From Girardia tigrina (taxonomy: Eukaryota), in NCBI GenBank assembly GCA_001938485.1, contig MQRK01229935.1:12615-76614 (forward strand): a DNA stretch of 64,000 bases, given 5' to 3'. This document shows, one piece after another, positions 646 to 52,426 of the stretch. A program made the translations under genes and the position numbers. The notes under the pieces were generated by a model. It was not told the DNA's origin, did not search any database, and saw only the letters and a list, made by a program, of their open reading frames with translations. The stretch's first letter is position 1. The number at the start of each line of letters is the position of its first letter.

Positions 646-831
646 ATGAAATCCTTAATTTTATTAATCATGGTTTGTGCAATATTGTTTCCTATTTGTG
701 AGGTAGATTCTTTCTACCGAAAACCAAAACCATTCGGGAAAAGATTCGTAAAAGAAACAGAAGAAGAATTAGAAAAAAGAAACAACGTTCAACATTTTCG
801 AAGATGGCATGGTCAATTTGAAGATAAATAA
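646..831 (+). CDS. Secreted neuropeptide prohormone, 61 aa (predicted FYRKPKPF-amide plus further dibasic-bounded peptides)
   Basis: Hydrophobic signal peptide MKSLILLIMVCAILFPICEVDS, then FYRKPKPF-G-KR (amidation Gly plus dibasic site), acidic spacer ending KR, NNVQHF-RR. TATA upstream and AATAAA at 852-857. Confidence 0.85.
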   Translation: MKSLILLIMVCAILFPICEVDSFYRKPKPFGKRFVKETEEELEKRNNVQHFRRWHGQFEDK

Positions 832-3655: not shown

Positions 3656-4092
3656 TTAAACAAAAGTGGATGTTATGTACGACGGGGTGTAATTGTTTGT
3701 GGTTGCGGATGAACCCACCGGTAGATTCGCTTTTTCCGCGCAAGGAATCGAACTCCTTTCGTGTTTATCTTCTGTTGTTGAACTATACGCGATGTTATCA
3801 AGACTTTCTTTCGAATCTCGATACCGCAATTGGGGATTCGATTGATGGAATAGAGATTTTGCTTTGATACTCGGAGTTTGGAGATTATTCACCATAATTT
3901 GCATTGGATTATTGGTGCTTGTAGAGGTTTCCGAGGGGTTTTTGTAATTGCAATAATTCGTCATATTGAAATTATTTTCCTTCAAATAATCGAGTTGTAA
4001 TTTCGGTAAGGAATTCGGGTAAAGAACATTATATTGACCTTCTTTCATCCACATTAGATGAGTGTAATTTTCATTTGAAGACGGATGTGCAT
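3656..4092 (-). CDS. Protocadherin terminal coding exon (cytoplasmic tail ending ...SYITSTFV*)
   Basis: Acceptor cattttag|AT GCA CAT (phase 1); 437 nt open to the stop. The first 38 codons of the listed ORF 3656-4207 are intron-like. T-F-V fits a class I PDZ-binding motif. Confidence 0.75.
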
Positions 4093-7000
4093 CTAAAATG
4101 ATTGAAATTATATTTAACATATAAAGGAAATGATAAAAAAATATTGTGTTTATTATCAAAATCCAATTTAAAGAAAAATACTCAGCATTTTTGTTATTGG
4201 GTTTCATAGGTAAATTTTAAAAGTTCAGGGGTCCCTCTGGTGATATAATTTTCGAATGAAGAACCTATATGAAATTAATCTATTTTAAGTGTATAATTTA
4301 ATAATTATATTGTCCTCGATTCAAGATTAGAATTAATAATTTTACACACCAATTTACTAATCAAAATAATACACATATTTAAACAAATGTCTCGTTAATT
4401 TAATCATTTCGCCAAAGTTCATTGAATAAATTTTCGGTGTTTAAAATTTATCTTTATTGACTTTTATCTTTTAACTTTTTATTTTCAAAATCATTTCGTA
4501 AAACTTTTTAACTTAACCTTAATTTATTTCAAAAAATTACATATTTTACCCCGTTTTTTATTTTTATTATTTATTTTAAAATTCTTATTTAAAAAGTTTT
4601 ACTAATTATTTTCCTATTAAAATATATCGATTTTAATTAATCTAAACTTTTTAGATTTTAACACACTTTTTTGTTTTACATAATTATTTAATTTTCGTGA
4701 AAATTTTAAATTTGATTTGGCGAATGGAAAATTTCAACTAAATCCTCATAAATAATAATCATTTTATAAAACAGAGATAATTCAGAGATTATTATAATGT
4801 TTTTGGTGTTTTCAGACGAAAAATGTATTAATCTTTAAAACTTCAAGCAGATAGAAGCTAAAATTAGTTTTGTAAATTACAGGGAGCAATGATCAGATAA
4901 AAAGAAGAAACTAAAGAAACACATCACAACAATTCCAGAGCACATACTAGGTGCTTTTGGATCCCGATTGAAGCTTTATAACTAACGCTTATAAAATTAC
5001 CAACCATACAGCTAGATGTGGAAACGATCACTTCGGGGCTCTTAAGACACCTGACGTTCAGTAAAACGAAGACTATTATGTCGCTTGGTAGACTTCCTTC
5101 AATGCGTATCACCTGATTTTTTATCAGAGCGTTTTTGAAGTTGGTCATGAGAAATAGAAGTTATGTTTAGAAAAAATGGCAGCACATATTTGTCTTTTTT
5201 GGCTTTAGAAACTGATGTCTTTACAAAGTTACTTTCGATCTCAGATCTGATACTTATTGGCTATACTATATAAATTACAAACTAGTGAAAAATGAGTAAA
5301 ATTAGTTTTAAATATTTAATGATTATTAATATATTTATTTCAAATACAATATCATTATTTCACATGGATAGTATATGCATCTAATTATCAAAATACTTTT
5401 TAAAAATTGAAAGACGCCATTTTAAAATAAAATCTTTTATTGATACAATATATTTCGAAAGAATATCCGTCATCATCAGGCAGTTCTGATTGTAGCTGTT
5501 AAGCTTATATATGTTAAATTGGAGATTATACAATGCGTTTCATTTAACAACAGCATGATACGAAATTCTAACATTAAAAAAATGGTTGAATATAATTATC
5601 CAATGAAATTATAGTTGAAGATCTTTTAACAATAACATTTACTATAGGAATTTAAGTTACACACACTCAATCAAGCATATACACACAAATACACACATAT
5701 ATACATACATACAAACATCAAAACACACATCATTTTATGCTCATTTAACAATTTAAGGCTCTTTTAACAACATTATCTCAGAAAAGTTAAAAAAATGAAT
5801 TATGAATTGGAAAGCATTTCTTCGGCGTCAGACAATAATACTGACCCAGCAATGGATGTTTCTCATGACATTCATGCTAAAAAGAAACGAAAATCGTAAA
5901 ATGTTTAAACTTTTACTTGATTTATTTCCTCATTTTTCAGAGTTTCTAAGAATGACAAAGAGAGAATTGTATCGGCGTACAATAAAGGACAAGATTATAT
6001 CAACGAAAATCGACAAATATCGATCGGTTATGAGAAAATCGATCGATAATTATCGATATTCGATTGACGCGATATCGAATTTGGAGACGCTCTTCCTGAC
6101 GCCGTTTAAAATCGTTCATCCCGCGTGTCGATTCGATTACGAGTCGATGAATTGATCGATTATCGATTTGATCGAGAGANNNNNNNNNNNNNNNNNNNNN
6201 NNNNNNNNNNNNNNNNNNNNNNNNNNNNNTTAAAATCGTTCATCCCGCGTGTCGATTCGATTACGAGTCGATGAATTGATCGATTATCGATTTGATCGAG
6301 AGAGACGATCGATTTGTTATCGGACGACGACGATGAAATACCACCGCCGCCGCCGCCTTTAATCGATAGTCGCAACAATATAATCGATTTATCGACGCTC
6401 TATCAACTGATAATCGACGACGATCAATCGTCCGATAGGATCTATAATCACAGCGATCGATCCAAGAAATCATCGATCATCGAGATTAGAGACGGCGACG
6501 ACGAGGACGAATCGATCAGTTCTCCTGCTGCTCCTCTGCCATCGTCATCGCCGCCGGCTTCAAATAACAACAATCGATCGATTGTCGGCCACAAACGACC
6601 GGATCGCGTACTCGCGCTTCCAGTCCGTGCAGGTGCCCGTCGTCCGCCAGTCGATCGATCGCTCGCTCTACCGACTGGCCCGGCTTTCGGTCAACTGCGC
6701 ACACTGACTGATTAATCGATTGATGCCACTGCTGTAAATAAATTTCCAGTTACAATCAACGATTGTGGCCCTAATGAGAACCGGTTCACTTTCTCCGGCG
6801 TTGCTCCTCTCGAAGACCGCCGTCGCCGATGTCGTTATAACAATCAGTTGAAAATAAAATAAAGTTGCAAAAATAACGACAGTATATAAAATGATATCAT
6901 AAAATTGAATTTTATTCAATTTTATGATATAACATTATATAAGTCTTAATGTTTCTATACTATGTAACAGTACATTAAAACTGTTATTAAATGTGCATGT

Positions 7001-10000
7001 TATAACATTTTACTGTTATAAAATGAAACGCACTGTATAATGCACTGTGTAATTACTATTTCACGTAAGCACTTTCAACAAAGTTGATGAGTCACTTCAT
7101 TGGTGCCAAGTTTGGAGCTTAGTTGAAACTATCTTTTATTGAATTACTTAAACTAAGAAGTTCTTTCAGGGTTTTCGTATTAGTTTACAGAGTCAAAGTA
7201 ATTTGATCATATTATTTTCGAAACAGCAATAGATCCATCGATTTGTGCATTCATAAATAAACTAGATATTTCAAATAATATCATGTATTTAGTATCGGAT
7301 ATTAAATTATATCATTGAAATCAAACTGTCTTTGATAAGGAATTTGTTGGAAATCAAATGACTTGAAAGGGAATAATGAACGATCCGGTAGTGATACTTT
7401 GCACGTCAACTTAAAAGCACATTTCATAAAATTCCTCAATTTATTTTCATTGGAAAAGGTTTACTATTTTCCTTAAGATTGATTAGAGTAAATTTGTTTG
7501 TTATAGTTTTTCTCCAATTTGATTTTATATTGAGCAAACATTTATTTAATTAATGGTTTAAAAATCCTGAAAAAGTGTAAATAAACAGAAATACTTTTTA
7601 TAATTAGTGAGAAAGAATTTTTAAAATGGGAAAAGAAAAGTTGTAAAGTTGTTAGATTAATATTTATCTAATAAATAAAATGCAATATATAATGAAACAT
7701 AATTTTAAAAGAAATAGAATTTCCAATTTAAATTAATGATTGTTTTAATTAAAATATCTGATTAAAGTAGAAAAAGTTTCCAATAAAACAATGAAGAAAA
7801 AATCCATTAATTAATACAAAAGTTTAAAAAAGATTTTTTATTATTTTATTTATTTTCAAATAAATAAAACGTATTTTTTACAAAAATTTTTAAAATTGAA
7901 TAAATAAATTTATGCCATATTTATTTTTGGAAAACAATAAATAAATACAATTAGAAAGAAATAATTATAATTAAAATATTTTTTAATTAAATGGAAAAAT
8001 ATTTGTTCTGCTTTTTTAAATTAATAATTAACGTGCTATTTTTATTAATAATAATTTAATTATTATTATAATTATTTACATAAAATATAATTATTTTTCA
8101 GATGAGTTTAATTATCCAGTAATTATTAATTTAATAATAATCTGGGAAATTTAAGATCTCGAAATTCAGTGAAAATAATACAGAATGGAATTATGACAAT
8201 TCTTTAGAATTTAATGTATTGTTGAGTTTATTTTTAATTTATTCATTCAATTTTTATAATAAATATTTCTTAAAAGCTTTTCAATTGATAAAAAAAGAAA
8301 AATTGAGAACCCTATTCTTTTAAGATACCACTACATATAATATTCTGGAAAGCTCACCTGTTAGTTCACAGAGGCTGGGGTCTAGCAGCTCGTCGTTGCA
8401 TTTTCGTTCATTCTGAAAACAAAAATAATCCATTATAAAACTGCTAATTATTGGAATTTAATTATTTTATCAAAATTGAAAATTTTCGATGAAATAATTT
8501 TTTAAAAAGTATTGTTTTGAATCATTTGTTAATTTTATTTCTTTTTTTATTTTATGTAATTTTTCAAAAATAACAAATTAGCGTTTATAACACTCAATAT
8601 TATACATGTATAAATAAAATGTCCTACCAACAATAATTCACCTTTTTACATTCATATCATTCCAAACCCATGAAGATTTTGTATAGAAAAACATTTAGTC
8701 TATTAAATATTTATTATATATTTTATATTTATGCATTTTTTGTGTTTTAACTTTTATTTTCATGCAGCAAATCAAAATAACAAAAATCAAAATCAATATT
8801 TATAAATATTTACATATATATTTAAATTTATATATACTTGCATTACATGTAGTGACTATTGTTAGGAGCTTGGGTGATTTCATAAAATTTTTGAATTTAA
8901 AATCTGATCAAATTAATAATTAAATAATTATATGTCGGAATGTAGAGTTATAGATATTAAGAACACCAACATGGGTTTTCGAACTTTTATTTTCATTACA
9001 ATTAGAATTGTCTTTTGGACAACTCTCAGCGAAACTCTCGTCATTCGACATCGTTCTAAATTGATAATTTTTAGTTAATGTTTTTTAATGAAAAATTATT
9101 CGAACAATTTTTTCATTATTTTCAGATTTTATTTTTAAAGTTCAAATTTTGTAATTTTAGTAATAATTTAATCTACATATTAATTTTATTTAAAAAATGA
9201 TTTTATGTAAAGAAGGAACATTTATTCAATTTAAAACTTAGTTAAAAGCTGTTTACTTTATTTAAATTTTTAATATTAAAATTTGAAACGATTTAATATT
9301 TTTAAGTTTATTTAGATATATTATGCTGTACTTTAAAATGCAAATTATACTCGAATAATTATTCTCCGTGAACATCCAAAATATCAATTTTCCATATGTG
9401 TGGGAGAAACACATTTCCAAATACTAAACTCAACATACAAAATTCAACAAACCAAATTTAAAATATTCCTCACAATAGATATGTTAAAATAAGATTTACC
9501 CATTTAATGTAAAAATTAATTTATGTAAAAATAAAATAAATTTTATGGTAGGTTTAGTAAATTGTAATTTGGAGTCAATAAAAAGAGTTATTATAAAGTA
9601 ATAAAGTAAATTAGAATTTTAATGGAAATATAAAACTTAATATTTAATTTTTGAAATGATAATAAACTAAAATATATTTTTTTAACTTTTATCTAACAAT
9701 TTGAAAAAAATTTAAATTGAAATAAATAAAAATATTATTTTGATTTTATTTTTAAATTGAGATTTTATCGAAATGGAAATGTAATTGAAGAAGGATTAAA
9801 TTAAATATGTAAAAAAAGGACAATTTAATAAACGTCAAAATAAAATTTTTGTAACATAATTTTATTAAAATAACTTATAATTTTAACAAAAGACGAGTAT
9901 AAAATTTAAATGCTTAATAAATGAAATAACAATATCTATATCTCTATTTATTTTGTAATCATTTCTGTAAAAAAAGAAAGTGCTTACGTTCCTTATAAAT

Positions 10001-13000: not shown

Positions 13001-16000
13001 AAAATATTTTAAAATTATATAATTGATAATTTAAATTCCATAATTCAAAATAATATTGAAATAACGATTTTATAAATTATTTGATAAATAATAAAATTAT
13101 TTTGTTTTAAAAATTTTTTATACGGATTATTTACGATTTAACAAAATAAGTTTAGCATCAAGATATTCTTGAGAATTTCATTATATTATTTATATTATTT
13201 TACAGATTGTAGAAAGTGTCTTATGATGAGTTTCCATAAGAAACTTTATAGACCATTTTCCCGCTGAATTTAGTCTTTTTACTAATTATTGAATGTTTTG
13301 TAAAATAATTTAAAAAAAATAAAACCAAAAATCAATTTATTGATGAATATATTCCAATCCAGCAGCACGATTCATAATGTTACGTTGAGCACATCATTTT
13401 AAAAGATGATTTATATAATGGTTTATAATTAAATTAATTTGTGAAAATGCTGTGAAATATCTTATAATTTGCAAGGTCTATTTAGAAATAGGTTAAAATT
13501 ATTTATATATGTCGTTTTTATATAATTTTGAAATATTAGTGAGACACCTTTGTTAAACCTCTTTTACTGAATCGAACTGTCACCCTTTGAGGAAATGCGC
13601 CATTGTCTGAAAGTGGTGGTAAATGCTGAGACAAGGATGGGACTGTAGGCAGGGTGTGGCAAAACTTCGATCCCTTGCAGCTCTTGCACTTCACCATGAG
13701 TAAAACGTGCAATGTGTACCGGAGCGTTGTCTTGTAGTAGAAGAAGTCAGTTGCAATTGACTAATGCCGGGTAACGCTCACAGATAATGGTGTAGACTCT
13801 GTCCAGTTGCTGAGTCTAGAGATTGTCATTGTACGCCACTCCGGAACCAGTTCTAAGTGGATCATCCCCACGAAATTCCACGATACGCGGAGCATAACTT
13901 CGCAATCGAAGCGTCCTTGTTTAACCACGATTTTGGAGGGCACACCAGGGTAGGGCTATTGATTCTCCTTATTGAGATTATGGAAAAATATTCACTTTTT
14001 CTCACTCGTCATGATCCTTCTGAAGAAGTGCATGTCATGGGGGTAAGCAAGTGATTCTTTGGTAGAGATCAAGTCGTTGTTGTGCTTGAGACTCGACACC
14101 ATCTATTGAGAAGGTAAAGCTGATAAAGCTAACGTTGAATAGTGCGTTATGAAGGATCAAGCTCTGCTGATAATCTCCGCGTGCTGGTGAAGGACTGAGA
14201 TTGGTCTTCCAAACTGACGTCACTCCTTGAGAAAGGCTTGTACTACAATTGTGACACGCGAACACTGACAGTACCTTCGCCTTTTATTTTACATATTTTC
14301 CGGGCTGAAAAAGCTGCGTTTAAGCATTTATTCCAGTAATGTTGCAAATTGATTCGAATTTCGTATTTCGTGAATAAACCAGCACTTTACAAGGAGATTT
14401 GTCATACAATACCATAATAAATAATATAAAAATCAATAATGCTAAAATAGAATATTCATTTAAAATAAGTGTCACGGTGTAAGGCAAAGAAAAACAAAAA
14501 AACTTTTGAATCTCCTTAGTATTCGTAGTGCATAACGAAATTTGAACTTTTATGACAAAGTTTTTTGCTGTTTAAAAATATATTGAAACCCGAAATAATG
14601 ACTGTTTCGAAATATAAAGGTTTATAAGGGAGAATGAAAAGAAATTTTATTATTATAAATCATCGAAATATCTGACGACTTGAATAAGCTAGAAGGAAGT
14701 TTCAAATTCTATTTTCTTGAACAGATGAACAGTATGTAGCAGAAATGAAGGATTATTCGCCCCTTCCATTAGGCTATGATGACTGGATATCCACAAAAGC
14801 TGTAGTAGAATTTATTTACTTATCAGGAGTCTTGTCCTATGAAATGAATTTCAACGCTAGTAAATTGGTACATTTTGATAAAAAGCAAATTTCCGAATAA
14901 ATTGCAACTCTCAAATTATTTACGTCTGAAATTATCGCACATTGAAGTTCATGTCAAGTCCATTGTGGAACGATGCAAGAAAGAACATCATCCTCAAAAG
15001 TCTCATTAATAATGTAAGTTTAAATAAATTTATTTCCTTCACTAACGTTTTTACACAGTTAAGTAATAGTTTACTCCAAAAGTTGATGTCATCAATTGTA
15101 GGGTCGGGACTCTTAAAAGTTTTGGATCATAAAATTCACTTATTAAATATTTTAATAATTAATAAAATCTTGATTTATTACTCTAAAGATAATAAATAAA
15201 AATTATAAATATTAGAGTATATTTAATGATCTACATCAAACTTTAATAACATTCTTAAACATTAAAGAAATATTTAGATTGAAAGCAACCGGTTACATAT
15301 ACAAAACATGACACTTCTGTATATTTGTATACAGAAATGAGTATCAAAACCGAAAATCGGAACTTTACTAAATTTCCTATACGTGTTTTATATGTTTTTT
15401 GATATTAATAATAATCACTTCAAATTTTTTTGAAGAAATATATTTTCATAAAAAGGTTTTTTTCAAATTCATATTTGTTATTTGTATTTATAAACATAAA
15501 AAAAATTAAATACTTAAAAACAATTCTTAAAAATGTTTAATTGTTGTATATAAATCCAAGAAAAAATAAAGCGAACTTGAAATAAAAAAAAAGTCAACAG
15601 AGAATTTACTTAACTCTATATAAGTTATATATGTTTGTAAATATACGATTTCATACGATTGTATACACCAATCAAGAAATATAAATATTTACCGTATATA
15701 AAGGTAATTATAGTCACTAATTCTAAAAGCTTTCTGATTGTTTACTTGTTGTTACTCGAACAATAAAGACATTTTAAAATTTGTTTACAACAATTATTAA
15801 ATCTAATTGTTGAAACAAAATATTTATCTAAAATTAGAGCTCGATTTTAATTTATTAATCTTAAACATAAATATGGAAAACAAACTTTATGAACATGAAT
15901 TTTAAATACATTGCATTTTGAGACCATTCTCAATCTCATGATCAAGTCAATTTTAATTCTGATTGAATATCCATCAGAGAAATAAATAAGTCTTTTTAAA

Positions 16001-19000
16001 TTCACTCAAAAATTATTGGAAATTAATTAATTTATTTAATTTTTAAAATTTTAGTAAAGGAACACTAATTATGATCAATTCCTTACTCATAAACTCTTGT
16101 ATTTCCATGTATCAATTATCATTTGAGAAACGATTTGTATTCTCTAATTCTGACCTACAAATTTCCCCGAGGAGTCTACGTGTACGAACATTTGAAAAGT
16201 GACTCTAAAATAGGTAAAAAGCGAATCCTCAAAAGTAATTTCCGAGGGGCTCACATATTTTCAAGAAAACTCATCAAGTTGGGATCTCAAAGTGCAAGAA
16301 AATTTGATTGAAATTAATGAAACGAAATTTTGCAACCGCAAATGTCATTCTAAAAGAGTTTTTGAAATGCATTGGATACTTGGAATGAATGTTAAGTGTT
16401 ATATATCTTGTAATGATCCTGTTGTGGTAAAGCGTCGCATGATTTTGCGACCAGTTGTTCTTGGAATTGATCATCCTACAATATAGAAATTCATAGAAGG
16501 TTTAAAAAAGATCCTAAAAGTCAATGATTAAGTAGTTTAATAATTTAAGATAATATCTTCTTTTTTATGAATAATATTACACTATCAACTAAATATTATC
16601 CTTTAAATTTTCTACTCACAATTATATGCGCCCATTGTCCTGCACCTAGTTTTCTGTGCCAATTTTTCGGTTTCGAAATTTTACACGATAAAGTGTATAA
16701 ACACCGAGAAAATTAGCTCAATGATATGGTCTGATCAATGGAGAGCATATTAAAAATTATAAGAGAAAGACGAAGTCCACAAAACTGTGAATTAATTTCT
16801 GAAATTTTACAAAGTAAAGTTTTTTTATAATTTTTATAGTATTTTTCAAGGTATGGAAGGGATATATCACTTATAAAACAGTCTCGATTGTAGAGGCCAA
16901 AACCGAAGTACAACCTAATTATTATTTTATTAAATTAATGATTATTTTTTCTATTTTTGAAGTTGTAAAATAAGTGAATTTATAAAACAAATGATTATTA
17001 AAAAAATACAATAAATATAATTTTTATCACATTTATTTTCAATTTTATTTTTTTTAAATAATTCTTATTTTTTATTTTTATATTTATATTTCAATAAATC
17101 GATTTATGAAAATATTATTAATGATATTTGATAAAATATAATTTTATTTTTTATTTTGTTTTCAATTTTTAAGTAATGTAACTTAATTCATCTTTAAATA
17201 TTATTTTAATGTTTTTGTAATTTTTAATCTCGAATTTTAATGTTTTTTTGGCGAGTTTTGTGTTTCTTAATCAATTTTTATGTTTACAAGTAATTTTATA
17301 GCTAAGTCTATCTTAATTTTAAATTTTAGAAACACATTTTTATTTGTATTTTATATCGTGCAGGTAACTTATAATAAAGTTTTATAAAGTTTTATAAATA
17401 TAAATAATTAAAAATGGATTTACAAGAGGATAGTTCTGATACATAAATACTTTCACTTGTGTAAAAAAATAATATTATTAAGAAATAATTTCATATGTAA
17501 CTTCTTTCAAACTACCTAAAACATTGATTTTTCGTCTTTCCAAATAAGTAATATATGCTTCAATACATTCCTTTACTTTTTCGTTTTTCAAAAGGAAAAG
17601 AAGTGTAGATGTAAGGAACATATTTACATCAATTCAACTTAAGGAATGTTCTGTAACAAAAGTTACTCAGCTTGTTTAGTTTTGTGACTCCTTTACAAGC
17701 CATTCGATATTAGCAGACCCCCAACGCAGCCTGATTTGTCTATTCAAGTTAAAATATCATAGCCAGGTAAATTTGATATTCATGTGTGAGATAAAATTCT
17801 ATCAGATAAAATTCTATCTAACAATTATTATTGTTTTGCCAAGCTGAGTCAATAATGACTTCGTCATAGAATAGTTTGTATTTTATACATTAAACAGTAA
17901 TGAGGGGTGAGTTGATTATAATTCAAATTATCTGATTGGATAAACTGACTTTCCATGAAGAAGTTATTTTTATTTTTTAAAGTTTTCTTTGAGAACCACT
18001 GTTCTGGAAGACTAAATGCAAAAATCAATCGTCAAAACAATGTTCAGAAGAAGAATGAACAATGAAGAAGATATATATTACTTTTTAAGTGTTTAGAAAG
18101 GAAAATAATCATCATAAAATAATATTATAGTAAGTAATTTGAAAATTTAATAGGATACTAAAATCTAAAAAATTATTTTAAATTAGTAAGCTACTAAAAA
18201 TTAATTTTTTAAAATTTTTACTTTTAAAATTTCAACGAAAATTAAATAATTATGTAAAACATAAAAAATACCGTAAAAAAATAAACAAAAATCGTAAGTT
18301 AAAAAGTTTAGATTACCCTAATTTCTTGCATATAACCCGCACCAATGTATAACCCGCACATTAAAAATATCAATAATTTCTATGAAAAGTATAATTTTTT
18401 ACGTATAACCCGCACCCATTGTATAACCCGCACTTAAATAAAGTCAGTTTAATTTCTACCTATTAATGTACTATTAATGTACTTTTAATATAATTACATT
18501 GTAATAATAATTTAAATAAAATCTAATAGTTTTGAAAATGTTGTTTTAATATTACAAATATTATGGATTTGTAACCAACCAAAAATGCCACCGAAACTTA
18601 AGTCTTATACCACCGAATTTAAATTAAAAGTAGTCAAATATGCTGAAGAAAATGGCAACAGAAGTGCGAGTTGTGAATATTCTGTGGATGAAAGTATTGT
18701 CCGAGATTGGAGAAAAAATAAGAATGTCTTAAATGTAATGCCGCGAGGAAAACGTGCCCGTAGAGNNNNNNNNNNNNNNNNNNNNNNNNNNNNNNNNNNN
18801 NNNAAACAATTGGTTATAACCACACGCGAAGAGAAAAGGAAAGTTTCAACAGTTGATATTCGATTGATGGCACGCAAAATAGCAATCGAAAGAGGTATTG
18901 ACGGCTTTAGAGACGGAATCAATTGGTGCTATCGTTTTATGAAAAGAAATCAATTGTCCGTGCGTGCAGTTACGTCTGCAGTTACTAAAAAGTTGCAGCC

Positions 19001-20643
19001 TCTCGATTTGTCTGTTAATAAGTCATTTAAAAATAAAATACGCAAAAGGTAGGAAAATTGGATGGTTAATGGTATTCACACATTCACTAAAACAAACAGA
19101 ATGAAACGCGCAACTTATGAAGATGTTTGCAATTGGGTTCTTGAAAGTTGGAATGAAGTCACACCTGAGCGTGTAAAAAATGGCTTCAAGAGATCAAAGC
19201 TTCATGTTTATAACATTAATAATGCTAGTCAAACAAATGAAGATAATAGTGACAATGATTATGACGATACAGATTCCGACAATTGCGATGATAAAGAATT
19301 AGTTTCAATTCTTACGCCGTATAGTGATATTCTAGAAGCATTTAATTTTGAGTCTGACGAAGATTTTGATGGCTTTGAATAAATTTCATGTATTTCACGG
19401 TTTTTCAAGCATAATTTTTAGAATAAAAGTATCATGTATTAAAGTAAAAATTTCATGTATTACCCGCACCTATCGTATAACCCGCATCCTCGAATTTTCG
19501 GGAAAACTTACTTTTTTTCCTTATAACCCGCGGGTTATACACAAGAAATTAGGGTAATTAAAACCGATATATTTTTAAAAAACAATAATTCAGGTAAAAT
19601 TGATCATCTAGAACGAATTTATTTAAAACATTAAATTTCAAGTCAAGTTAAATATTTTTTAATAAAAGTTATAAATTTCAGAGATAAATTTTAATAGTGA
19701 AAGTTTAATAAATATATACGAAAGTAGAAATTTGAATTTAAAATAAATTTAATAAATGTATTTTAGATAAATGATTAAATTGGATTAACGGTATTAAATT
19801 TGTTTAAATTTGTGTGTAATTTTCTTTAATAAATTGTTGTGTGAAATTATGAATTCTAATCCTAAATCAACTATCATCGATAAATATGTCAATGCAACTA
19901 ACAAAAATATTTTCATTTCGTCCTCATCTAGCATTACAATATTTATTCATTCATTCAATAGATTAGATTTGACTTTTCATTTTAGCATCAAATAACATTT
20001 CCTTGTATTTTCAAAAAGGAAAACTGCTTTTGTTTGAAAGAAATTCACGGAAAATTGAAATGTTGGATAAGAAGTTAATTCCTTTTCAGCAGGCTTTAGA
20101 AAATCATTTACTTATGATCGGTTTATAAACATTATTCTGATCTTAAGAGAAAACTAATGACTTGGGACAATTCATCATTTTGAATCCATGATTTGATCAT
20201 TTAAGTACATGTACCGTGCTGACTGAGGCACAACAGTTTTTCATTACTATAAGAAGAGTGATACTTTAATTTCGTAAAGAAGATCGACTTTAGGACCACG
20301 ATGTATTTTTGTGGTAAATGGCCGAATATTATTGACTCAGAATCCTGCAATAAAAGATTTCAAAACAAGAAATAGTGGCAATCGTTATTTTAAGGATTAT
20401 GAACAAGCCATATTTGATGACACTGGTCTCTAAAAGAATGAAAGGGTTATCTTTCAGTTCTAACTAGAAGCATTGTGTTTTTTTATTTTTAAAGTTGTTA
20501 GAAAGTTTCTTTGTTAAAATAATCATTGCAAATCATATTTAATTAATTAATTAATAAGAACCTGAAAATAATGCACATTAAATAAATTTACATAAACAAA
20601 ATGATTTATTAAAAATATTTAAAACTTATTGAACCTATTGAAA

Positions 20644-20690
<47 letters not shown>

Positions 20691-23600
20691 TATATTANNN
20701 NNNNNNNNNNNNNNNNNNNNNNNNNNNNNNNNNNNNNNNNNNNNNNNNNNNNNNNNNNNNNNNNNNNNNNNNNNNNNNNNNNNNNNNNNNNNNNNNNNNN
20801 NNNNNNNNNNNNNNNNNNNNNNNNNNNNNNNNNNNNNNNNNNNNNNNNNNNNNNNNNNNNNNNNNNNNNNNNNNNNNNNNNNNNNNNNNNNNNNNNNNNN
20901 NNNNNNNNNNNNNNNNNNNNNNNNNNNNNNNNNNNNNNNNNNNNNNNNNNNNNNNNNNNNNNNNNNNNNNNNNNNNNNNNNNNNNNNNNNNNNNNNNNNN
21001 NNNNNNNNNNNNNNNNNNNNNNNNNNNNNNNNNNNNNNNNNNNNNNNNNNNNNNNNNNNNNNNNNNNNNNNNNNNNNNNNNNNNNNNNNNNNNNNNNNNN
21101 NNNNNNNNNNNNNNNNNNNNNNNNNNNNNNNNNNNNNNNNNNNNNNNNNNNNNNNNNNNNNNNNNNNNNNNNNNNNNNNNNNNNNNNNNNNNNNNNNNNN
21201 NNNNNNNNNNNNNNNNNNNNNNNNNNNNNNNNNNNNNNNNNNNNNNNNNNNNNNNNNNNNNNNNNNNNNNNNNNNNNNNNNNNNNNNNNNNNNNNNNNNN
21301 NNNNNNNNNNNNNNNNNNNNNNGATTTTCATTCAAATCATGTGGAACCCATTTATCAAGTTTCTTGATTTTTCCAAGTTGTTTTAAATGATCCAGGACTG
21401 TTGAATGAATAATGCCCAACCCATCTGCAAGTTCTCTGATTATTGTACGGGGATCTGTTTTCACCATTGTCCTCAAATTGTCGTTGTTCACAGCAACTGG
21501 ACGACCACGACCTTCTTCATCTTCAAGGTTTTCATCTCCATCAGAAAATTTTTGGAACCATCGTTGCACTGTGTGCTCAGAAGCTGTTCTCTTGCCAAAC
21601 GCTTTATTGATATTGCGAGCCGCTTCTGCTGCTTTACGACCCAGTTTAAATTCGTACAAGAAAATTACTCGAATTTTAATTTTTTCCATTATTAATTTAG
21701 CACCGTAAATATTCTAAAAAATAACAGCAATATGTTAATTATATATATATACTCAAGACAGGAGAAGAGTCAGACAGATTCTAATGAATAAATAATAAAT
21801 ATTTTCATTTATTAATTATTTTTGCTGAAGAATTCAATTTTTCATCAACATTTTTTTTCTGTCACTTTCGGATTAAATATTATATTTTTCATTTTGAAAA
21901 ATAAGAATGTAATTACAAGGCCTTTAATGTTTTCTTACCTTTATTTACAATGATTAAAACTAATTTTTTTATCATATTTGTTAGAAATAAGTTGAGAATT
22001 ACTTTTTCAATAAAAAAAATTTCAATAAATTCTTTTTTTAATTGTAAAGGTTTCAAAAAAGTTAAAGATTGATAATTTAAAATGTTATTTGATCAAAACC
22101 AGTTATCGAAAAATTGATTCAACAAATGTTAGATAAAAGTTTACATGAGTAAGTTAATAGTAATAAATAATTTGGTTTAATATAATAACAGTCAACTCAA
22201 AATAATGCATATATTCATCATACTAAGTTCCGTAACATAAATTAAAACCCATTTGAAACAATGTATATCTTATAATTTCTTATTCAAAAAGTTATAACAT
22301 CTTAAATCATCATTTTCGAATGGTGGGATTCCAAAAGCATTGTAATAAATATTATTTTAGTTTGTACTCTGATTTTGTTTATGAATTTACATCTAACAGA
22401 CTCAATGTCATATAGGTTAGAGAGACATTTCGCCATTTCTGCAAACGCATTAAAGAACATGGTCGATTTGATTATGAGAGCCATATGGCTGACCACAATT
22501 TAAAATTTAAAAATAAAATCGGAAAACGATTTTCAAATTCTGTGTAATCGATTTAACAAATATTGGGAGCGTTACGTGTGAGGCCTTCGTTATCTTAGTA
22601 ATGAATTGATACGAAAATTAATATTCTAGCTTCACACTCAACTTATTTGTTAAACATTTTCAAATAGAACCTTTAAGACGCAAATAATTACCTTATCATT
22701 TCTTTATTACCAAACAAAATCTTGATGAAGTAAAATAAATATTTAAAAGTCTACAATTTTTTTTCGTTTTAATTTTCAAACATTATAACATTTTAATAAA
22801 AAGAAAAAGAAACAAAAGTCGTTAAAATTAATATTCAAATATTTTACAAATTATATTTTCTGATGATGATATAAGAAAAATCAAAACATAATCAATAATC
22901 AATTTTTAAAAAGTACTTTAACTAAATTATTTTTCAAATATGTCTTTATATATAAATATATATTTGTAAATCAGCAGTAAAAATAGTAAGAATAATCAAA
23001 TATTTTACGAAAAAAGAAATCTATTAATTTATTTATCCCAGCAGAAAGAAAAAAAGGATAAGCAGGAAGTTAGTCTAAAGAAGTATTAGTTGTCTTCTCG
23101 AATCCCCAATCTATAATGATGATTGATTCGCAAAGACACAGTTTGAAGGAAGTCCTTAAGAACATTTAAATTTGATAAATTTACAGATTTATATTTCGAT
23201 TGTAATTAAAATTTTTAAACATTATGAGATTTTAAGTCGAAATTTAAATTTAAGACAAAATTTATTTAAAAATGCTTTTACATGAATTTAATATTATTTT
23301 ATACACATTTTATATTTTTTTAGATAAAATAAATTGAATTTTAGTTCATAAGTCATTTTTATTATAAATCAGTCTTATATCAAACATTAAAGAAGTATAT
23401 TGTTAACAATAAAGCTAGAAAACAATTATTCTTGGACCTCATGACTACTCGTTGTTTTACAATCTTGGAAAAAAGAAAAAGAAATTTTCAATTTTTTTAA
23501 TTTATGTTGATGCATCTGTTAATTTTTAATTTTGTTCTGCATAATAGTTGTAAATAATCTATTAGTGTAGAGACATTCATTTTGAAAAGATTATAAACAT

Positions 23601-42000: not shown

Positions 42001-45000
42001 ATAATTATAATATAATTTACTGATTAAAACTCCAAAATAACTGACTTTCTTTTCTTACAATTTCCATGACATTTCGTCGCATGATTCATAATTGAGCTAT
42101 TTCTACTTGATTGAGTGTATTCGGCAATTCTTGTACTATTTGTCTCTCCAATGTACAAGGATTCACACTTGTGACATTTATATTGGTAAATTAGATCAGC
42201 TTTCATACTCAATAGTGTTTTAGCTTTATTAAAAAAGTAGTTGAAAATTTATTTATTGGAAAATAATGCATTACTTTTAACTTCCACTGGAGCACGTTCC
42301 TCGAGAACACTTTTATGTAATTTTGCAGTATTTTTTTCTTTTTTCTGTTACATTAGTCATACTGTTGGTGTTATTTGATTTTAAATAAATTGACTCTATA
42401 GTATTTTCAAGGAATATTTGTAATCAGTAATTGAAATTATAATTATGAAAAGATAATTACTAAAGCACTGTTAATTAAGTTTTTGAAATCTAGTTTAAAC
42501 GTGCAATGTGATTCATCCAATCAAATAAAAGTATTTTAACGTAAAACATGAATGAAGTTATTATAATACCAGTTGATTAGAATTCAGAACTGATGATGCC
42601 ATATGGACGAAACATGTTTTCAATAAATAAAAATATTAAATAGTTTTATTCTCGATTCCATTAATCTATCAAAAGGTCAAATAAGTATATCAAGCTAAAT
42701 GGGAAAATTGATTTTTAACTTATATAAATATTGTTTTTAAAAAATGAGTTTTCGATCTTATCGAAATTATTTTATTTGACTTTTTTAAGTTAGAAATTTT
42801 TTACGTTCCATCGTCCAGTTTGCTTTGTGGTGCACCTTATTCATTTATTATTCCGTACTTTATTATTAAAGATTATTAAATCCAGATAAAATAAGCGACT
42901 AAGTAATAATAATAATAATCTTTTCCGATCCTATACTTTATATTATCTACTTTTTCCTTTTGTATTATTATCAGATTTTGATAAAAGACACGCAAAAGAC
43001 ATTACTAAATTGAAAAAAAAAATTAAAATTGGAAAAATGATGAAAATAATTTCAATTTTGTTAAAACTTTTTTTTGATTAAAATAGCACTAAAAATATTT
43101 TAATAGGATATTTGTACTCATACAAGCAATTTTACCACAGTTCTATTTATATATTTAATTATTTATTTAGTTTGGATTTAATTTAACAAGTTCAATTCAA
43201 TAATTATGAATTTTTTTACAGTAGAACTTTAAAATTAATTAATTTTATTGTATGTATGTTTTTGTCTCCACATTTATTTTTAATTTTAAATAATAGTACA
43301 TGTATTTTAAGTTTAAAGGAAAAAGAATTTATGGAGTGGAAACAATAATTTTATAAGAGTATATTCTCTTCGAATGATTCTTTTTTTATAAAAAAAACAT
43401 TTTTAAAAACAATTTTTGAAAGGAGAAATAAAACATCACTTGAATATTAATTTGAATGAGGTTTAATAAAGTGATTTGGGAACAACTAGAAAGATGTATT
43501 ACTGGAACAAGAATGACTTCTTTATTTCACGAAAAGAAAACATCAGTTGCAGCAGTTCTAACAGATTTGTCAGATAAAATCAAAAACTTTTTAGGAACAA
43601 AAAAAGTATTTTTAATTACGTCTATCGATATTAAAAATTATAAATTCTGTTCGAATCCTTTCATCAGGCCAAGAAAAAGCTCGCATTACTGCATTTTTAA
43701 TAGCAATTGTTAGTTGCAATGATATCATTTTCGATATTTAAATTAGCATTCATAATTGTCAATTTTTTTATTAGCACAAAATAGTAATTTTTATTTAAAA
43801 TAAATTTTCGACTTTTTTTAATAATCAAATTCTGATTAAATTTGTAAAAATTGAAAGTTAAAAATGATATTTAAATCAATTAAAATTTATTCTAAAATAA
43901 TACGCATTTTGGAATTAAAATTAATTCTTGACAAAATATTTAAAATTTTTTGTTATTTAAAATTAACTCAATTTATTTTAAAATAATATTCATTTAAAAA
44001 ATTTAGAAAAAAACTTTATTCTACCATATTAAAAAATAATTATAAGTCAAATTTATTATTTCCAGAAATTATATACTTAAAAATATTTGAATTATATTAT
44101 TAAACTTGAAATCAAAGCTTAATTTAAAATATTTTTTAAATTATTTTTTAATTATTTCTAAATAAATAAAATTTGTCACCCAACTTCTCATAGCAATGGT
44201 AAATGGAAAAAAAATTAAATTTACTTAATTTTTATAGAGAAGTAAGAAATTTTGAATAACAGTAGCTTATGAGGATTTACAAATACCTGAGTTGTATCAT
44301 ATTCGAAAATTTGATAGTTTATTTTCCATTCAAAGAATATAAAAAATGTTAAAATCTCTTAGAAGTATTATTTTATATGTTTTAGTGGATGTAAAAAGTA
44401 TTGTGAACAGTAAACAAAAATGGTAGAATCCTCTAAAAATAGGAAAGGATTAGGAAGATTTAAAGATTGAATAATGAAGATATTTTCAAAAAAGTAAAAG
44501 AAAATATTCCTATGCACATGATCTTCTTCTGATAAAAATTTAATTAATTACTTAAAATTACTTAAATCCCTTTTACAATTTAAGTAATATTTCAATCATT
44601 TTCCTTTTATTTAAATTCATCGACTGATTTAGAAAGATAATTAAACATCCTTGTTGTAACATGACAAAAGGTAAGTGTTAAGAGCACCGATACAATCGCT
44701 ATGAACACATTTTTTTACATTCAGAGTCATCACAACTCTCAGCAGTTCTTTCATCATTGGTCATCATAATAATTAGTGTAGTCTCTGAATTCTAACAATG
44801 ATTATTCGAACAAATTATTATTTTAACTTTAAAATATTTCATAAAATTATAAAAAAAAATAATTAAACTAATTTTAAAATTATTCAAATTTCTAAAATGT
44901 TTTTTATTTAAAAATAAAGCATGCTTATTTTAAATTTTGAAAAATAATACTTATATTAAAAATTACTCAATATTGTTATTTTGTAAATTTATATTTTATC

Positions 45001-49625: not shown

Positions 49626-49658
<33 letters not shown>

Positions 49659-52353
49659 ATAACTTTTTTGAGATAATGAAAATTAAATTATTTATCTTTA
49701 ATATTTTACCTTGATTGCTCTGCCCTCTATTTTTCAGAAATACATAAAGGAGAATAATAAGAACGCCGCTGAATACTATGAATAAAATTGCTGCTAATCC
49801 ATAAAGCAAAGTTAGACTGTTGGGCTCTTTAGTTGGATCATTGTCTATGGGTAAGAGATTAATTGTTTTTTTATCTGAAATCATTTCAGTGGACATTGGC
49901 TTTTTATTACTTTCATAACGAAGGTAGAGAGTAGCCATTTCTGTTTGAGGCGGATTTCCGCCATCTGAAGCTTGAATTAGTAGTCTATCAGGATTGAGTT
50001 TCTTTTCTAATAACTGTTTACTAAGAATGAGTTTTCCCGATTGATGAAGCTCAAAAGTAGATTTAATTGGTTCTCCGGCTACTAATTTATACGTAACAGT
50101 TCCGTTAATTCCATTATCAGGATCTTTGGCTTCAATTGTCGCCAGAATACTCCCAATAGAACTTTCTAAACTCAGATTTATGTAATTTTTGTTGTGAATA
50201 CTTGGAAACTCGAATTTCGGTCTATTATCATTAACATCAAGAACGTTAATTATTACAGTCGTTACGGAGGATAAAGGTGGGCTACCATTATCCGTGACAA
50301 TAATTTCAGAATGAATGGTTTTCGTTACTTCTCTATCAACGTTACCGTAAATTGATAGTTGACCATCTGAAGTTATTTGCAAAACATTTTTACGAGAATC
50401 CAACGATTTGCTTGGAGAAATTTTAAAATTAATTGATCCATTTAAACCAAAATCGGCATCCGTTGCATTAATTTTACCAAGATTTTTATGAATTGTAATA
50501 TGACCGTTACTTTCGGTAATCTCAAAAATAAACTGCTTGTCGACCTCCGGTTTACAATCGTTTACGTCGAGGATGAATATCTTCACAGTACAAGAACCAG
50601 TTAAAGGGTCTTTCCCATGGTCTTTTGCAATTACTTGAAACTCGTAAGTATCAACACTTTCCCGATCTAGTTCGTTATTTGTCTGAATTTGTCCCTTACT
50701 ATTTATTGAGAACATGTCTTTGGGAAATTTATCATTTACTGAGATTTCATACGAAACTCTTCCGTTGTCGTTTATATCTGGATCTTCGGCTTTGACTGAA
50801 GCAATAATACTTCCAATTGGTATATTTTCTTCAACTGAAAAAGTGTAAATCTGTCTTGGGAATTCCGGAGCGTTATCGTTTATATCAAGAATGTGAACCG
50901 TTAAAATCTGAGTATTCGATTGAGCAGGGGTTCCTTTATCGGTACACGTTATGATAACTGAAAAACTTGTTTGTTTTTCTCTATTAAAGGTAACTCCTTC
51001 AAGGGTATTCAAGGAATATAAAACCCAATTTCCCGAATTTCCGCGCAGTTTCTTTCGATGGAGACTTTTCAAACTAAAATTTTGTTGATCATCAATGACA
51101 CAATCGAATTCTGAGTTTACATTTCGATCAGGATCAGTCACAATGACGTTCGTTAATTTCACAGATCTCATCTCATTTTCATTAAAACTTGGATTTCGAG
51201 TTTGAATTTCGATATTTGGTTTATTGTTGTTACAGTCAAGAATTTTAACGTACACTGTCTTCGTGCTAGACTTTCCTCCGCCGTCTTTAGCTACAATTTC
51301 TACTTCGAAGTCAAAGGTTTCAATATCTTTCAATTTCATTGTATCAATAAAGAGTATATTTGAGGAAATATGAAACAAGTTGGTTATTTTATCATTAGAT
51401 TTGGATTTTTCACTTATCTCATAGGTAATCCGACCGTTTTCTGTGCTTGGGTCATCCAAATCATCGGCTTCCAGTTTTAAAATCTCTCTTTGCATGGAGC
51501 ATTCTTTCACTTCAACGGAATAATGAGTATTTCGCCATATTGGAGTATTATCATTGACATCCAAAACTGATATTGAAATTTTACAGTCTCCATGCTTTCC
51601 TTTTTTATCCCAAGCAATTAAGTTAAACGAAAACCTGTCCACCTTTTCCCGGTCCAGGAGCTTAACGATTTGTAACACAGGGGTTATCAAATTATCCTTA
51701 TCTTTTTGATTGATTAACTTAAAATATTCGTTGAAATTATCGTCGGATTTCGTGTCGTCTGCAAATCTAACCGAATAGCGGTCAATACCGTTCTCCAAAC
51801 TGTCTAAATCGACGGCTTTTGGCAGATGGTATTTCGTTTGGACACTGTTTTCGCCCTCATAAATCGTTAATTGCTTCGATTTTTCTTTAAAAATCGGTGA
51901 ATTATCATTAATATCTTTGATATATAATGAAAATTCTTTTGTCAAAGATTGATAAAGCAAAATATAATCAACTTTACAATCATCTGTCTCCAAATATGGA
52001 CACAATTCTTCCCGGTCAAAGACCGATTTGATAATGATATCTCCGGTTCTTCTGTTGATCTCCAAATGGTTATGACGACTACTCTTCACGTCCGAAGGCA
52101 TCAAATCTACGTACTGGATGATGGACCGGTTCTCATTTGGTAAATCCAGAATCTTAAATATATTTATTAAAGGTTGAGAATCCAACTGATGTTCGGTCAC
52201 ATTAAACGTTTTAAACGTTTCGATATTTCTGATCAAAAAATGAACCCATGTCGACAAAAAAACCCAATCTAATAATTTGTTTTCAAAAGAAAAAGACAAA
52301 TTAATTTTTTTTAAAACGAAAATTAACTTACAAATTTTAATCGATAAGTGCAT
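3656..52353 (-). CDS. Protocadherin (7 EC repeats, TM, PDZ-binding C-terminus); spliced model join(52353-52332, 52268-49710, 36609-36545, 8412-8358, 4092-3656), 1045 aa
   Basis: All junctions are GT-AG with matching phases (1,1,0,1). Total 3138 nt = 1046 codons including the stop. Extra frame-neutral exons cannot be excluded. Confidence 0.75.
4194..4264 (-). CDS. Candidate alternative protocadherin exon ([23 protein letters not shown])
   Basis: Acceptor ttcatatag|GT TCT in phase 1, the same phase as the terminal exon; possible donor GA|gtattt at 4181. Confidence 0.4.
5443..5484 (-). ncRNA. Degenerate minimal hammerhead-ribozyme motif (Penelope-type)
   Basis: Minus strand TGC-CTGATGA-T-GACGGATATTCTTTC-GAAATATATT-GTA followed by AATAAA; stem II is degraded. 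Confidence 0.45.
6314..6715 (+). CDS. Acidic, proline-rich ORF of unknown origin inside the CpG-rich insert
   Basis: 133 open codons (TTG start); DDDD and PPPPPP tracts; no recognisable domain. Confidence 0.3.
   Translation: MLSDDDDEIPPPPPPLIDSRNNIIDLSTLYQLIIDDDQSSDRIYNHSDRSKKSSIIEIRDGDDEDESISSPAAPLPSSSPPASNNNNRSIVGHKRPDRVLALPVRAGARRPPVDRSLALPTGPAFGQLRTLTD
6894..6930. repeat. Perfect palindrome, 17-bp arms with 3-nt loop
   Basis: ATATCATAAAATTGAAT-ttt-ATTCAATTTTATGATAT. Confidence 0.9.
8358..8412 (-). CDS. Protocadherin internal exon, 55 nt ([18 protein letters not shown]+G)
   Basis: ttgttttcag| acceptor and |gtgagc donor; GC-richer island; phase 0 to 1. Confidence 0.8.
8955..9474 (-). mobile_element. 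Solo-LTR-like element (TGTGAGG...TAATA family), copy A
   Basis: Family termini, shared internal motifs, 5-bp target duplication ATAGA (8950-8954 and 9475-9479). Confidence 0.8.
10077..10550 (+). mobile_element. Gypsy-like PBS/gag remnant
   Basis: PBS-like TGGCGACC overlapping an ATG ([26 protein letters not shown]), then a degraded frame. Confidence 0.45.
13535..14521 (-). mobile_element. Mariner transposase pseudogene
   Basis: Minus-strand remnants QDNAPVH, HPAYSP and [19 protein letters not shown], with frameshifts and stops. Confidence 0.8.
14600..15010 (+). mobile_element. piggyBac-like transposase remnant
   Basis: Heavily degraded blocks resembling piggyBac core motifs (SG..Y and HFD). 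Confidence 0.3.
16300..16680 (+). mobile_element. Mutator (MULE)-like 3' remnant
   Basis: [12 protein letters not shown] at ~16472-16510 resembles the MULE C-terminal HPxIWxFI motif; short GC-rich subterminal repeats at 16628-16675. Confidence 0.45.
18316..19554 (+). mobile_element. pogo-family DNA transposon (Brinker-type DBD plus CENP-B HTH), internally deleted
   Basis: TA duplication; 25-bp TIRs CCCTAATTTCTTG..TATAACCCGC; repeated subterminal [32 protein letters not shown]...[15 protein letters not shown] is joined directly to [13 protein letters not shown], followed by an acidic tail; one stop at 19050-19052. Confidence 0.92.
21322..21689 (-). mobile_element. Mariner transposase N-terminal part (remainder in an assembly gap)
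   Basis: [17 protein letters not shown]...GRP...WVPHDL, uninterrupted up to the N gap. Confidence 0.9.
24064..24711 (+). mobile_element. Solo-LTR-like element copy B
   Basis: TGTGAGG...TTAATA with 5-bp duplication CTAAC (24059-24063 and 24712-24716). Confidence 0.8.
24092..24483 (+). repeat. Tandem duplication of a 196-bp unit
   Basis: 24092-24287 is repeated at 24288-24483 with only about 2 substitutions. Confidence 0.9.
29119..30420 (+). mobile_element. Mariner pseudogene
   Basis: TIR-like TATGTTGATGCATAAGTT; degraded WVP, VTGDEKW and HNARLH motifs. Confidence 0.8.
29169..29401. mobile_element. piggyBac-type MITE nested in the mariner 5' UTR
   Basis: TTAA target duplication; perfect 13-bp TIR CCCTACAATGCGC; 233 bp; no ORF. 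Confidence 0.88.
30591..31250 (-). mobile_element. hAT-like transposase remnant
   Basis: Degraded RWN motif near 31115 and a CAGG terminus at 30591. Confidence 0.35.
31374..31450. repeat. (ATT)n microsatellite
   Basis: About 25 uninterrupted trinucleotide units. Confidence 0.95.
33760..34269 (-). mobile_element. hAT element 5' fragment (CGGBP1-like zinc finger)
   Basis: Terminus TAGGGCAACCGGGTTGC; ORF FPREF...[10 protein letters not shown]...KHKSSKKH (C2H2/BED-like). Confidence 0.7.
34270..34719 (+). mobile_element. Mariner 3' fragment
   Basis: [10 protein letters not shown] (degenerate LLHDNARPH) and a TIR-like end ...GAACGACCTAATA. Confidence 0.65.
36545..36609 (-). CDS. Protocadherin internal exon, 65 nt ([22 protein letters not shown])
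   Basis: tattttag| acceptor and |gtaagt donor; phase 1 to 0, which exactly bridges the large exon and the 55-nt exon. Confidence 0.8.
38691..39015 (+). pseudogene. ADP/ATP carrier (SLC25 ANT/AAC) 5' fragment pseudogene
   Basis: [10 protein letters not shown] and [22 protein letters not shown]; premature TGA; truncated after about 105 codons; antisense within a protocadherin intron. Confidence 0.9.
40680..41372 (-). mobile_element. Penelope-like fragment flanked by inverted pLTR ends
   Basis: [29 protein letters not shown] (GIY-YIG); ~80-bp inverted repeat at 40680-40760 versus 41295-41372 carrying hammerhead cores. Confidence 0.85.
42024..42300 (-). mobile_element. Penelope-like GIY-YIG remnant
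   Basis: [19 protein letters not shown]. Confidence 0.8.
42586..42622 (+). ncRNA. Minimal type I hammerhead-ribozyme motif
   Basis: GAA-CTGATGA-T-GCC-ATAT-GGAC-GAA-ACATGT-T-TTC followed by AATAAA; palindromic stem III (ACATGT). Confidence 0.6.
46831..47188 (+). mobile_element. Solo-LTR-like element copy C
   Basis: TATGAGGAAT...TTCTTAATA with 5-bp duplication AGGTC (46826-46830 and 47189-47193). Confidence 0.8.
47453..47645 (+). pseudogene. RPS15A: 40S ribosomal protein S15a (uS8) pseudogene fragment
   Basis: [28 protein letters not shown] ... [12 protein letters not shown] matches the uS8 consensus, with an internal deletion and stops. Confidence 0.85.
47900..49100 (-). mobile_element. Gypsy pol (RT/RNase H) remnant
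   Basis: Very degraded blocks resembling YFS.IDL and FLG..GFY. Confidence 0.4.
49710..52268 (-). CDS. Protocadherin large exon (EC1-EC7, TM, juxtamembrane)
   Basis: DREELC...C in EC1; six DxNDN-type linkers (DINDNSP, DVNDNTP, DCNNNKP, DINDNAP, DVNDCKP, DVNDNRP); [27 protein letters not shown]; donor CAA G|gtaaaa. Confidence 0.97.
52332..52353 (-). CDS. Protocadherin first coding exon (MHLSIKI), followed by a 63-nt in-frame intron
   Basis: T|gtaagt ... ttattag|AT; splicing yields a compact signal-peptide-like [20 protein letters not shown]. Confidence 0.7.
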
Positions 52354-52426
52354 ATTGAGAAAATGAAAATAAAATAAAATGATAAATAAAAAATAAAATT
52401 ATTTTAATTTAATTTGAAATGATTTA

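Follow-up and report, generated by a model that had tools for sequence, protein, structure and literature searches.

In the 64,000-nt stretch of the Girardia tigrina genome analysed here (assembly GCA_001938485.1, contig MQRK01229935.1, positions 12,615 to 76,614 of the forward strand; hereafter the window, with positions counted from its first letter), a TA-flanked transposon with terminal inverted repeats (TIRs) lies at 5531-7035 and carries between its arms a segment, the cargo, that is unusually rich in the words TCGA and ATCGAT. We consider it probable that the element belongs to a multi-copy family in which some 0.7 kb of TCGA-rich DNA took the place of the body of a Tc1-type transposase gene, having been captured once, in the course of repair or replication, and afterwards spread in trans. 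The ends of the element, the cargo junctions at 6001 and 6835, the cargo-bearing (loaded) form in four other sequencing runs, empty sites and contigs in which other sequence replaces the cargo were all observed directly; from them we infer capture by template switching and mobilisation in trans.

The first-pass annotation had described TA-flanked TIRs and a transposase start that breaks off near 5999, and both descriptions held. The TA target duplications lie at 5529-5530 and 7036-7037, and the two 23-nt TIRs (5531-5553 on the plus strand, 7013-7035 on the minus strand) pair at 20 of 23 positions. The right repeat reads CAGTG inward, and we take CAGT to be the typical terminus of a Tc1 element. 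The TA duplication and the short TIRs are features of Tc1/mariner (ITm) elements, and the label Tc1-like is likely to be correct, judging from the ends and the target site, the catalytic domain being missing from this copy. A 13-nt motif of the TIRs is repeated further inside, at 5761-5773 (plus strand) in the left arm and at 6981-6993 in the right arm; with up to two mismatches it occurs six times in the window, four of these within the element. The inner copies are likely to represent putative second binding sites for the transposase. The GC content of the left arm is 0.28 and that of the right arm (6835-7035, plus strand, with AATAAA signals) 0.20, and TCGA is found in neither (0 in 5531-6001, 0 in 6835-7035). 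The right arm also contains an AT-rich palindrome of 59 nt (6883-6941; z -6.75, 0 of 200 shuffles as extreme), in what is likely a 3' untranslated region; a cargo-free contig spans this part too. Just outside the element the last 12 nt of its right end are repeated in tandem (7030-7053), perhaps as the footprint of a local rearrangement.

From an ATG at 5795 the left arm appears to encode the start of a transposase. Exon 1 (5795-5895, plus strand), whose identity is presumed, ends in a basic run resembling a nuclear localisation signal and is followed by a 45-nt GT-AG intron (5896-5940, plus strand) and by an exon 2 stub (5941-6001, plus strand). The stub would form the start of a helix-turn-helix-like region and is broken off at 6001, so that exon 2 is reduced to about 20 residues; the DDE/D catalytic region is deleted in this copy. 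In other copies the intron donor is nearer to the consensus (place 5900, in four of four runs), and 1-nt insertions or deletions occur inside the intron at 5910 and 5924. The transposase frame enters the cargo and reaches a stop at 6047-6049, 15 codons in. Metagenome contigs scanned for the stub returned nothing.

The cargo occupies 6002-6834 (plus strand) and contains at 6180-6303 a gap of 50 N followed by 74 nt (6230-6303) that are identical to 6106-6179. The gap and the duplicate are a scaffolding artefact, and contig 32 of run X5, one of the runs introduced below, appears to bridge the gap without the duplicate, to judge by how long it is and by a depth value (62.9) held in common. Since the 124 nt at the gap are artefactual, the cargo measures 709 nt and the whole element 1381 nt. 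The cargo of about 850 bp that had been reported is real and of odd composition, but smaller than stated.

TCGA occurs 28 times in the 709 nt (13 in 6002-6179, 15 in 6304-6834), against 3.2 per kb in the remaining window, and the four richest 400-nt windows (23, 17, 13 and 10 TCGA) all overlap the cargo, the best elsewhere having 6. In 6230-6836, ATCGAT was counted 12 times, where 1000 dinucleotide shuffles gave a mean of 2.1 and a maximum of 8, and TCGA 21 times (mean 12.9, maximum 22). The GC content of the two parts of the cargo is 0.40 and 0.52 in a window of 26% GC overall; other stretches of the window are GC-rich as well (0.45 in 13560-14330, 0.48 in 57400-57780). What is distinctive within the window is thus the TCGA/ATCGAT words and not the GC content, and the claim of the first-pass annotation that this is the most anomalous segment stands for the words and fails for GC alone. 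The comparison with the tetranucleotide composition of the host, which it had proposed, ranks the cargo as most extreme under a host 4-mer model (-2.12), by a slim margin over the stretch at 13601 (-2.09).

Of 24 other sequencing runs listed, 20, from 11 studies, share part of the cargo. Four were compared in detail (X1, X3, X4 and X5); the remaining 16 hold small shares under aquatic, biofilm or leaf-litter labels, two of them recorded as RNA, and are not used as evidence for habitat or transcription. The results below refer to 40 of 134 differences, 15 of 97 joints, 24 of 484 loose ends and 32 of 4302 contig pieces. Matching contigs numbered 3800 in X1, 50 in X3, 258 in X5 and 63 in X4, and both arms together with the cargo were covered in all four; bins left uncovered in X3, which is guessed to be RNA, were not treated as a finding. 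In X1 the summed depth was 24,700-374,600 in all bins of 5367-7108 with the exception of the gap bin (852), and 44 in the flank at 7109-7242. This sum is not a copy number, but a contrast of more than 500-fold between element and flank marks an abundant repeat. The further copies with the same cargo for which a search had been suggested thus exist, in many variants, and this abundance supports the proposed mobilisation in trans more strongly than the first-pass annotation could have done.

The 5' junction is spanned by contig 11 of X3 (5927-6063) and contig 20 of X4 (5972-6065), the 3' junction by contig 24 of X4 (6755-6849). Other left-arm contigs depart from the window at 6000/6001, among them contig 6 of X1 (2159 nt, depth 65) and contigs of X3 and X4, and contig 16 of X3 attaches the right arm (6835-7037) to 167 other letters. 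The contigs that depart at 6000/6001 and at 6835 are likely cargo-free relatives, and because they leave the window at 6001 and 6835, both junctions of the cargo are fixed. In X4 the 30 letters shown past 6001 give 10 codons that are open in the transposase frame when read by hand; they resemble the remainder of a helix-turn-helix. An earlier idea, a simple insertion with a TTATA duplication and a helix-turn-helix resuming after the cargo, was dropped because the cargo-free contigs continue differently after 6001.

These junctions also bear on the suspicion, raised by the first-pass annotation itself, that the segment is a chimeric misassembly or a contaminant spliced at the N gap. The gap and its exact 74-nt duplicate do lie inside the cargo, and no single run holds even half of the cargo words (best share 0.32). 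However, neither junction is near the gap, contigs from independent runs read through both, and arms and cargo occur together in four of four runs. This objection is thereby removed, and we regard a misassembly as scarcely credible.

Insertion into a resident sequence is seen as well. Six of the 15 joints shown connect 5528-5538 directly with 7046-7071 and so skip the whole element (X1), and such joints were also found in X4; the other nine are internal skips. Since joints skip the element, its insertion site is a short repeat of separate nature, which elsewhere is uninterrupted. The left part of this host repeat lies at 5393-5528 (minus strand, with a hammerhead-like minimal core at 5453-5479) and the right part, defined by the empty-site joints, at 7048-7103 (minus strand). 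Flanks that differ from those of the window were found at the element ends in contig 10 of X3 and in loose ends of X5 after 7037 (agreement 0.54), and the loaded form may occupy several insertion sites. At 6671-6749, loose ends in X1, X3 and X4 show that other copies carry a different GC-rich sequence, so that the cargo exists in at least two forms.

The most likely course of events is the following. An intact Tc1-like element would have been broken about 54 codons into its transposase gene, and repair would have switched template to a GC- and CpG-rich donor and then back near the end of the gene. An imperfect palindrome of 68 nt (6000-6067; -17.8 kcal/mol, z -3.4) begins at the 5' junction and may mark or have promoted the template switch. 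Structures as extreme were obtained in 1 of 200 shuffles and 0 of 300 4-mer shuffles for this region, which was picked post hoc, and the two differences between copies that fall within the palindrome are both in its loop. The product would have retained both arms with their pairs of binding motifs and, at 1381 nt, would have been of almost normal length, and so would have stayed a good substrate, which the transposase of intact relatives could have amplified as a passenger.

Several points weigh against this reading. The capture can only be inferred, because no donor was found. The transposase stub gave no family match in Pfam or in the protein, PDB and plasmid collections. Two of the contigs that span junctions fall below the standard of 31 letters on their short side, contig 24 of X4 with 15 letters past the 3' junction and contig 20 of X4 with 30. 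Among the contigs listed none spans the whole element, and none ties the cargo-bearing form to a second site, so the varied flanks may belong to cargo-free copies. Finally, the longest open run of the cargo, 139 codons, is of borderline length and is reached by chance with P 0.05-0.13 in k-mer shuffles.

The cargo could also be a separate small host element, or a remnant of one, that inserted into the transposase gene, with a later deletion removing the gene body and the composite being amplified; the first-pass annotation had likewise named, as a case that would refute it, a host repeat inserted with its own termini. The palindrome starting exactly at the 5' junction would suit such an element, as would the peak of summed depth at 6707-6840 in X1 and X4, as though this end also occurred elsewhere, and the window is rich in nested remnants. 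However, the ends of the cargo show neither inverted nor direct terminal repeats, and no target is duplicated, because the flanking sides derive from opposite ends of the gene. Furthermore, none of the 24 loose ends shown points out of the cargo at one of its junctions, and depth sums are unfit to rank parts. Helitrons end in TC...CTRR with a 3' hairpin, and long terminal repeat (LTR) elements in TG...CA with a duplication of 4-6 nt; at the cargo there was no CTRR end, no TG...CA pair and no significant hairpin in 6760-6840 (z +0.91). We hold a nested element to be unlikely.

A first frame of the cargo (6000-6155, plus strand) runs for 51 codons to a stop and is separated by a frame shift from a second one (6296-6862, plus strand), which has 139 open codons, a stop at 6713-6715 and 48 more codons reaching into the right arm. 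The acidic, Pro-rich frame of 133 codons announced by the first-pass annotation is indeed acidic and Pro-rich, but spans 139 codons between stops and lacks a Met. The 6296 frame contains one stop in 179 codons, while the remaining five frames have 6, 11, 7, 7 and 7; at most one stop is expected by chance with P 0.03-0.05 (k-mer shuffles), and the 3' two thirds of the cargo show three-base periodicity with P 0.016-0.034. The codon use of the frame differs from that of the protocadherin gene in the window, with a GC content at third codon positions of 0.52 versus 0.31 and Pro encoded by CCG in 10 of 17 versus 5 of 34 cases. Three in-frame insertions or deletions listed in 6296-6834 sit in triplet runs and were excluded as coding evidence. 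Overall the coding signal is modest (P 0.02-0.13).

The 139-codon product is acidic, rich in Ser and Pro, free of Met and predicted to be disordered; AlphaFold2 on the single sequence gave pLDDT 56, pTM 0.14 and no secondary structure. On sequence grounds the cargo, with its non-host signature, is likely to be a broken and decaying piece of a gene whose product was an acidic, disordered protein. In the list of differences, 22 between this copy and the other runs fall in the cargo. Thirteen have A/T here and G/C there, three the reverse and six are neutral (P 0.021), and this copy is drifting to the AT content of the host, as neutral passenger DNA would. CpG-directed decay as a cause was rejected, since 8 of the 13 changes lie in CpG with 52% expected, which is no excess.

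It is very unlikely, in our view, that the cargo is instead filler without coding function that arose in place when a TCGA/ATCG seed was copied repeatedly by fold-back. In favour of such an origin, TCGA is its own reverse complement, a palindrome makes up the first 68 nt, TCGA/ATCG words occur in all three frames and no relative is present in the libraries searched. On the other hand, a search of the cargo for tandem arrays gave none beyond one 15-nt repeat, and its 3' two thirds have both the three-base periodicity and the one nearly open frame.

A further alternative is that the cargo was kept for a function that helps the family or the host: it could act like a CpG-rich promoter, give rise to small RNAs or encode a short SUMO-binding peptide fused behind the transposase start. 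SUMO-interacting motifs (SIMs) have a hydrophobic core of the form hhXh or hXhh beside acidic residues (PMC8616421). Two motifs in the 139-codon frame fit the pattern used here, the first with a looser core than this consensus; this count is near chance for the composition (P 0.04-0.14 in k-mer shuffles). Retention of the cargo in four runs with differing organism and habitat labels would fit a function, as would its coverage in X3, although X3 is RNA only by guess. The transposase frame, however, ends 15 codons into the cargo and the long frame has no Met; many copies have internal skips, and the present one drifts to AT. We give a retained function little credence. Rfam returned no RNA family for the cargo, only five sub-threshold matches to miRNA hairpins.

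Searches for the donor covered the window itself as well as protein, viral, phage, prokaryote and metagenome collections. The rest of the window holds no parental copy of the cargo. No protein cluster matched the 139-codon frame, also in longer and near lengths, at E 0.1. Among 1.84 billion representatives there was one match (E 2.5e-4), which lay on a proline run of an unrelated protein and was rejected. The ESM Atlas gave no usable match for the cargo frame (recognition 1035), Pfam and PHROGs gave nothing below E 0.05 for the cargo frames, and phage records gave no hit for the cargo in blastn and tblastn. Joining both frames with X at the breaks also yielded no match in PHROGs, phage records or Pfam. 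A scan of metagenome contigs for a cargo pattern that lay in a part variable among copies returned zero.

Five candidate loci were rejected. Among the viral contigs, the match in L001 lies on the opposite strand of a Lon-protease-like gene, that in L002 is off frame inside another gene, that in L003 has no open reading frame (ORF) and that in L005 is only 17 nt long, while a further scan of these contigs gave no match; L004, from prokaryote genomes, is a match of 26 residues to a short frame that is not a gene. As an endogenous viral element the cargo showed no homology to viral genes or genomes in the viral contigs, PHROGs and phage collections, which were judged poor in DNA viruses of invertebrates. 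The first-pass annotation had proposed a Pack-type capture of DNA from a virus, a giant element or another organism. Its Pack-type replacement is supported, while for the donor no search found a relative.

Among the possible donors, another large mobile element of the host comes first, with a chance somewhat short of even, followed by a DNA virus as a possible but clearly less likely source. A host gene and another organism are both improbable, to the same degree, and a cargo made in place is very improbable. In one specific scenario, which we consider doubtful, the cargo would derive from a gene for a disordered protein of SUMO-binding type, carried by a large DNA virus, or a giant element resembling a virus, that infects or inhabits a freshwater invertebrate and has yet to be described; a Tc1-like shell would then have amplified this gene fragment to very high copy in several host lineages. 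If true, it would be a transposon-borne fossil, and perhaps a small-RNA memory, of a virus family absent from the collections. Burro giant LTR elements of planarians, which carry accessory ubiquitin/SUMO and apoptosis domains (PMC6431247), are a candidate donor class only.

Among the closest known systems are the multicopy Pack-TIRs of animals. Tan et al. (2021; PMC8277862) assigned 115 of 370 Pack-TIRs to TcMariner carriers and found that multicopy ones tend toward GC-rich captures. Such multicopy cases were few in their survey of 100 animal genomes: frogs and alligators supplied four, to which Ssk-FB4, present at four loci, is added (Tan et al., 2021). The present family resembles Pack-TIRs in having 0.1-5 kb of non-transposon-looking DNA between the ends of one TIR element, here 709 nt with arm limits matched by cargo-free contigs, and shares a probable TcMariner carrier, probable multicopy spread by transposition and the GC-rich cargo. 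Multicopy Pack-TIRs have one chimeric structure at several sites with distinct target sites; here the same junctions recur with many variants in other runs, and the flanks at the ends vary, although no single contig links any of these flanks to the cargo. In contrast, a Pack-TIR has a unique parental copy in its host genome, not linked to a transposon and at least 90% identical (PMC8277862), whereas no parent of the present cargo was found in the window or in the collections searched; moreover, the family here looks far more abundant, and its cargo composition is unlike that of the host genes in the window. Because the Pack-TIR survey required a host parent, it would have overlooked any family whose cargo is foreign or cannot be placed.

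With Tc1 the element shares the TA duplication, the short TIRs (about 30 bp in Tc1) and a length near 1.3 kb (Dupeyron et al., 2020; PMC7325037), and with HvSm elements of Hydra and Schmidtea, compared by description only, the TA duplication and TIRs in the range of 15-56 bp (PMC7325037). The transposases of Tc1 and HvSm are of the DD34E type, whereas the copy here has no DDE domain and a stub with an intron. Plant Pack-MULEs are likewise non-autonomous, 1-2 kb long and moved in trans, with gene fragments between TIRs and GC-rich cargo (PMC6431247, PMC8277862), but the element described here has a TA target, short TIRs instead of Mutator ends and an animal host.

A description of this family was not found in the literature searched, Repbase and subscription journals being outside its scope. 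An abundant Tc1-like family whose cargo bears a non-host signature offers a handle on DNA capture by animal transposons, through its fixed junctions, the junction palindrome and intact relatives, and the cargo is a ready probe for its donor. Should an ordinary resident element prove to be the source, the family is a modest addition to transposon catalogues.

Further features were observed elsewhere in the window. An ORF of 186 codons without Pfam match lies at 3656-4216 (minus strand). At 646-831 (plus strand), a 61-residue ORF resembles a neuropeptide precursor: its start is signal-like, and it contains a short peptide with GKR at its end, a spacer of acidic character and KR/RR sites; it has no Pfam match and its neuropeptide motif was not found in the literature. 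The protocadherin-like gene used above for comparison is an intronless ORF of 923 codons at 49627-52398 (minus strand), with Pfam matches to Cadherin (E 1e-66) and Cadherin_2 (E 2e-8) and with cadherins and protocadherins as Atlas neighbours. ITm remnants lie at 18516-19052 (pogo-like, HTH_Tnp_Tc5 and BrkDBD), 21326-21713 (mariner, HTH_48) and 53741-54373 (a Tc1-like frame with a weak Pfam match). A broken fragment of mitochondrial HSP60 (57495-57677, minus strand; E 6e-15 to PDB chains) lies in a stretch of GC 0.48 beside a mariner-like remnant, and is possibly another captured or processed gene piece.

Two hammerhead-ribozyme-like cores followed by AATAAA were also seen. The minimal core at 5453-5479 (minus strand) belongs to the repeat that is interrupted by the transposon, and a second core lies at 42590-42612 (plus strand). 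Neither matched a hammerhead family in Rfam, their folding was not significant, and the hammerhead pattern occurs eight times in the window with 3.6 expected. A hammerhead core followed by AATAAA is the pattern of the ends of Penelope-like elements. Hammerheads are linked to the terminal repeats of these elements (PMC6431247). Two differences at 5459-5460, present in all four runs compared, would let the hammerhead-like stem of the interrupted repeat pair fully.

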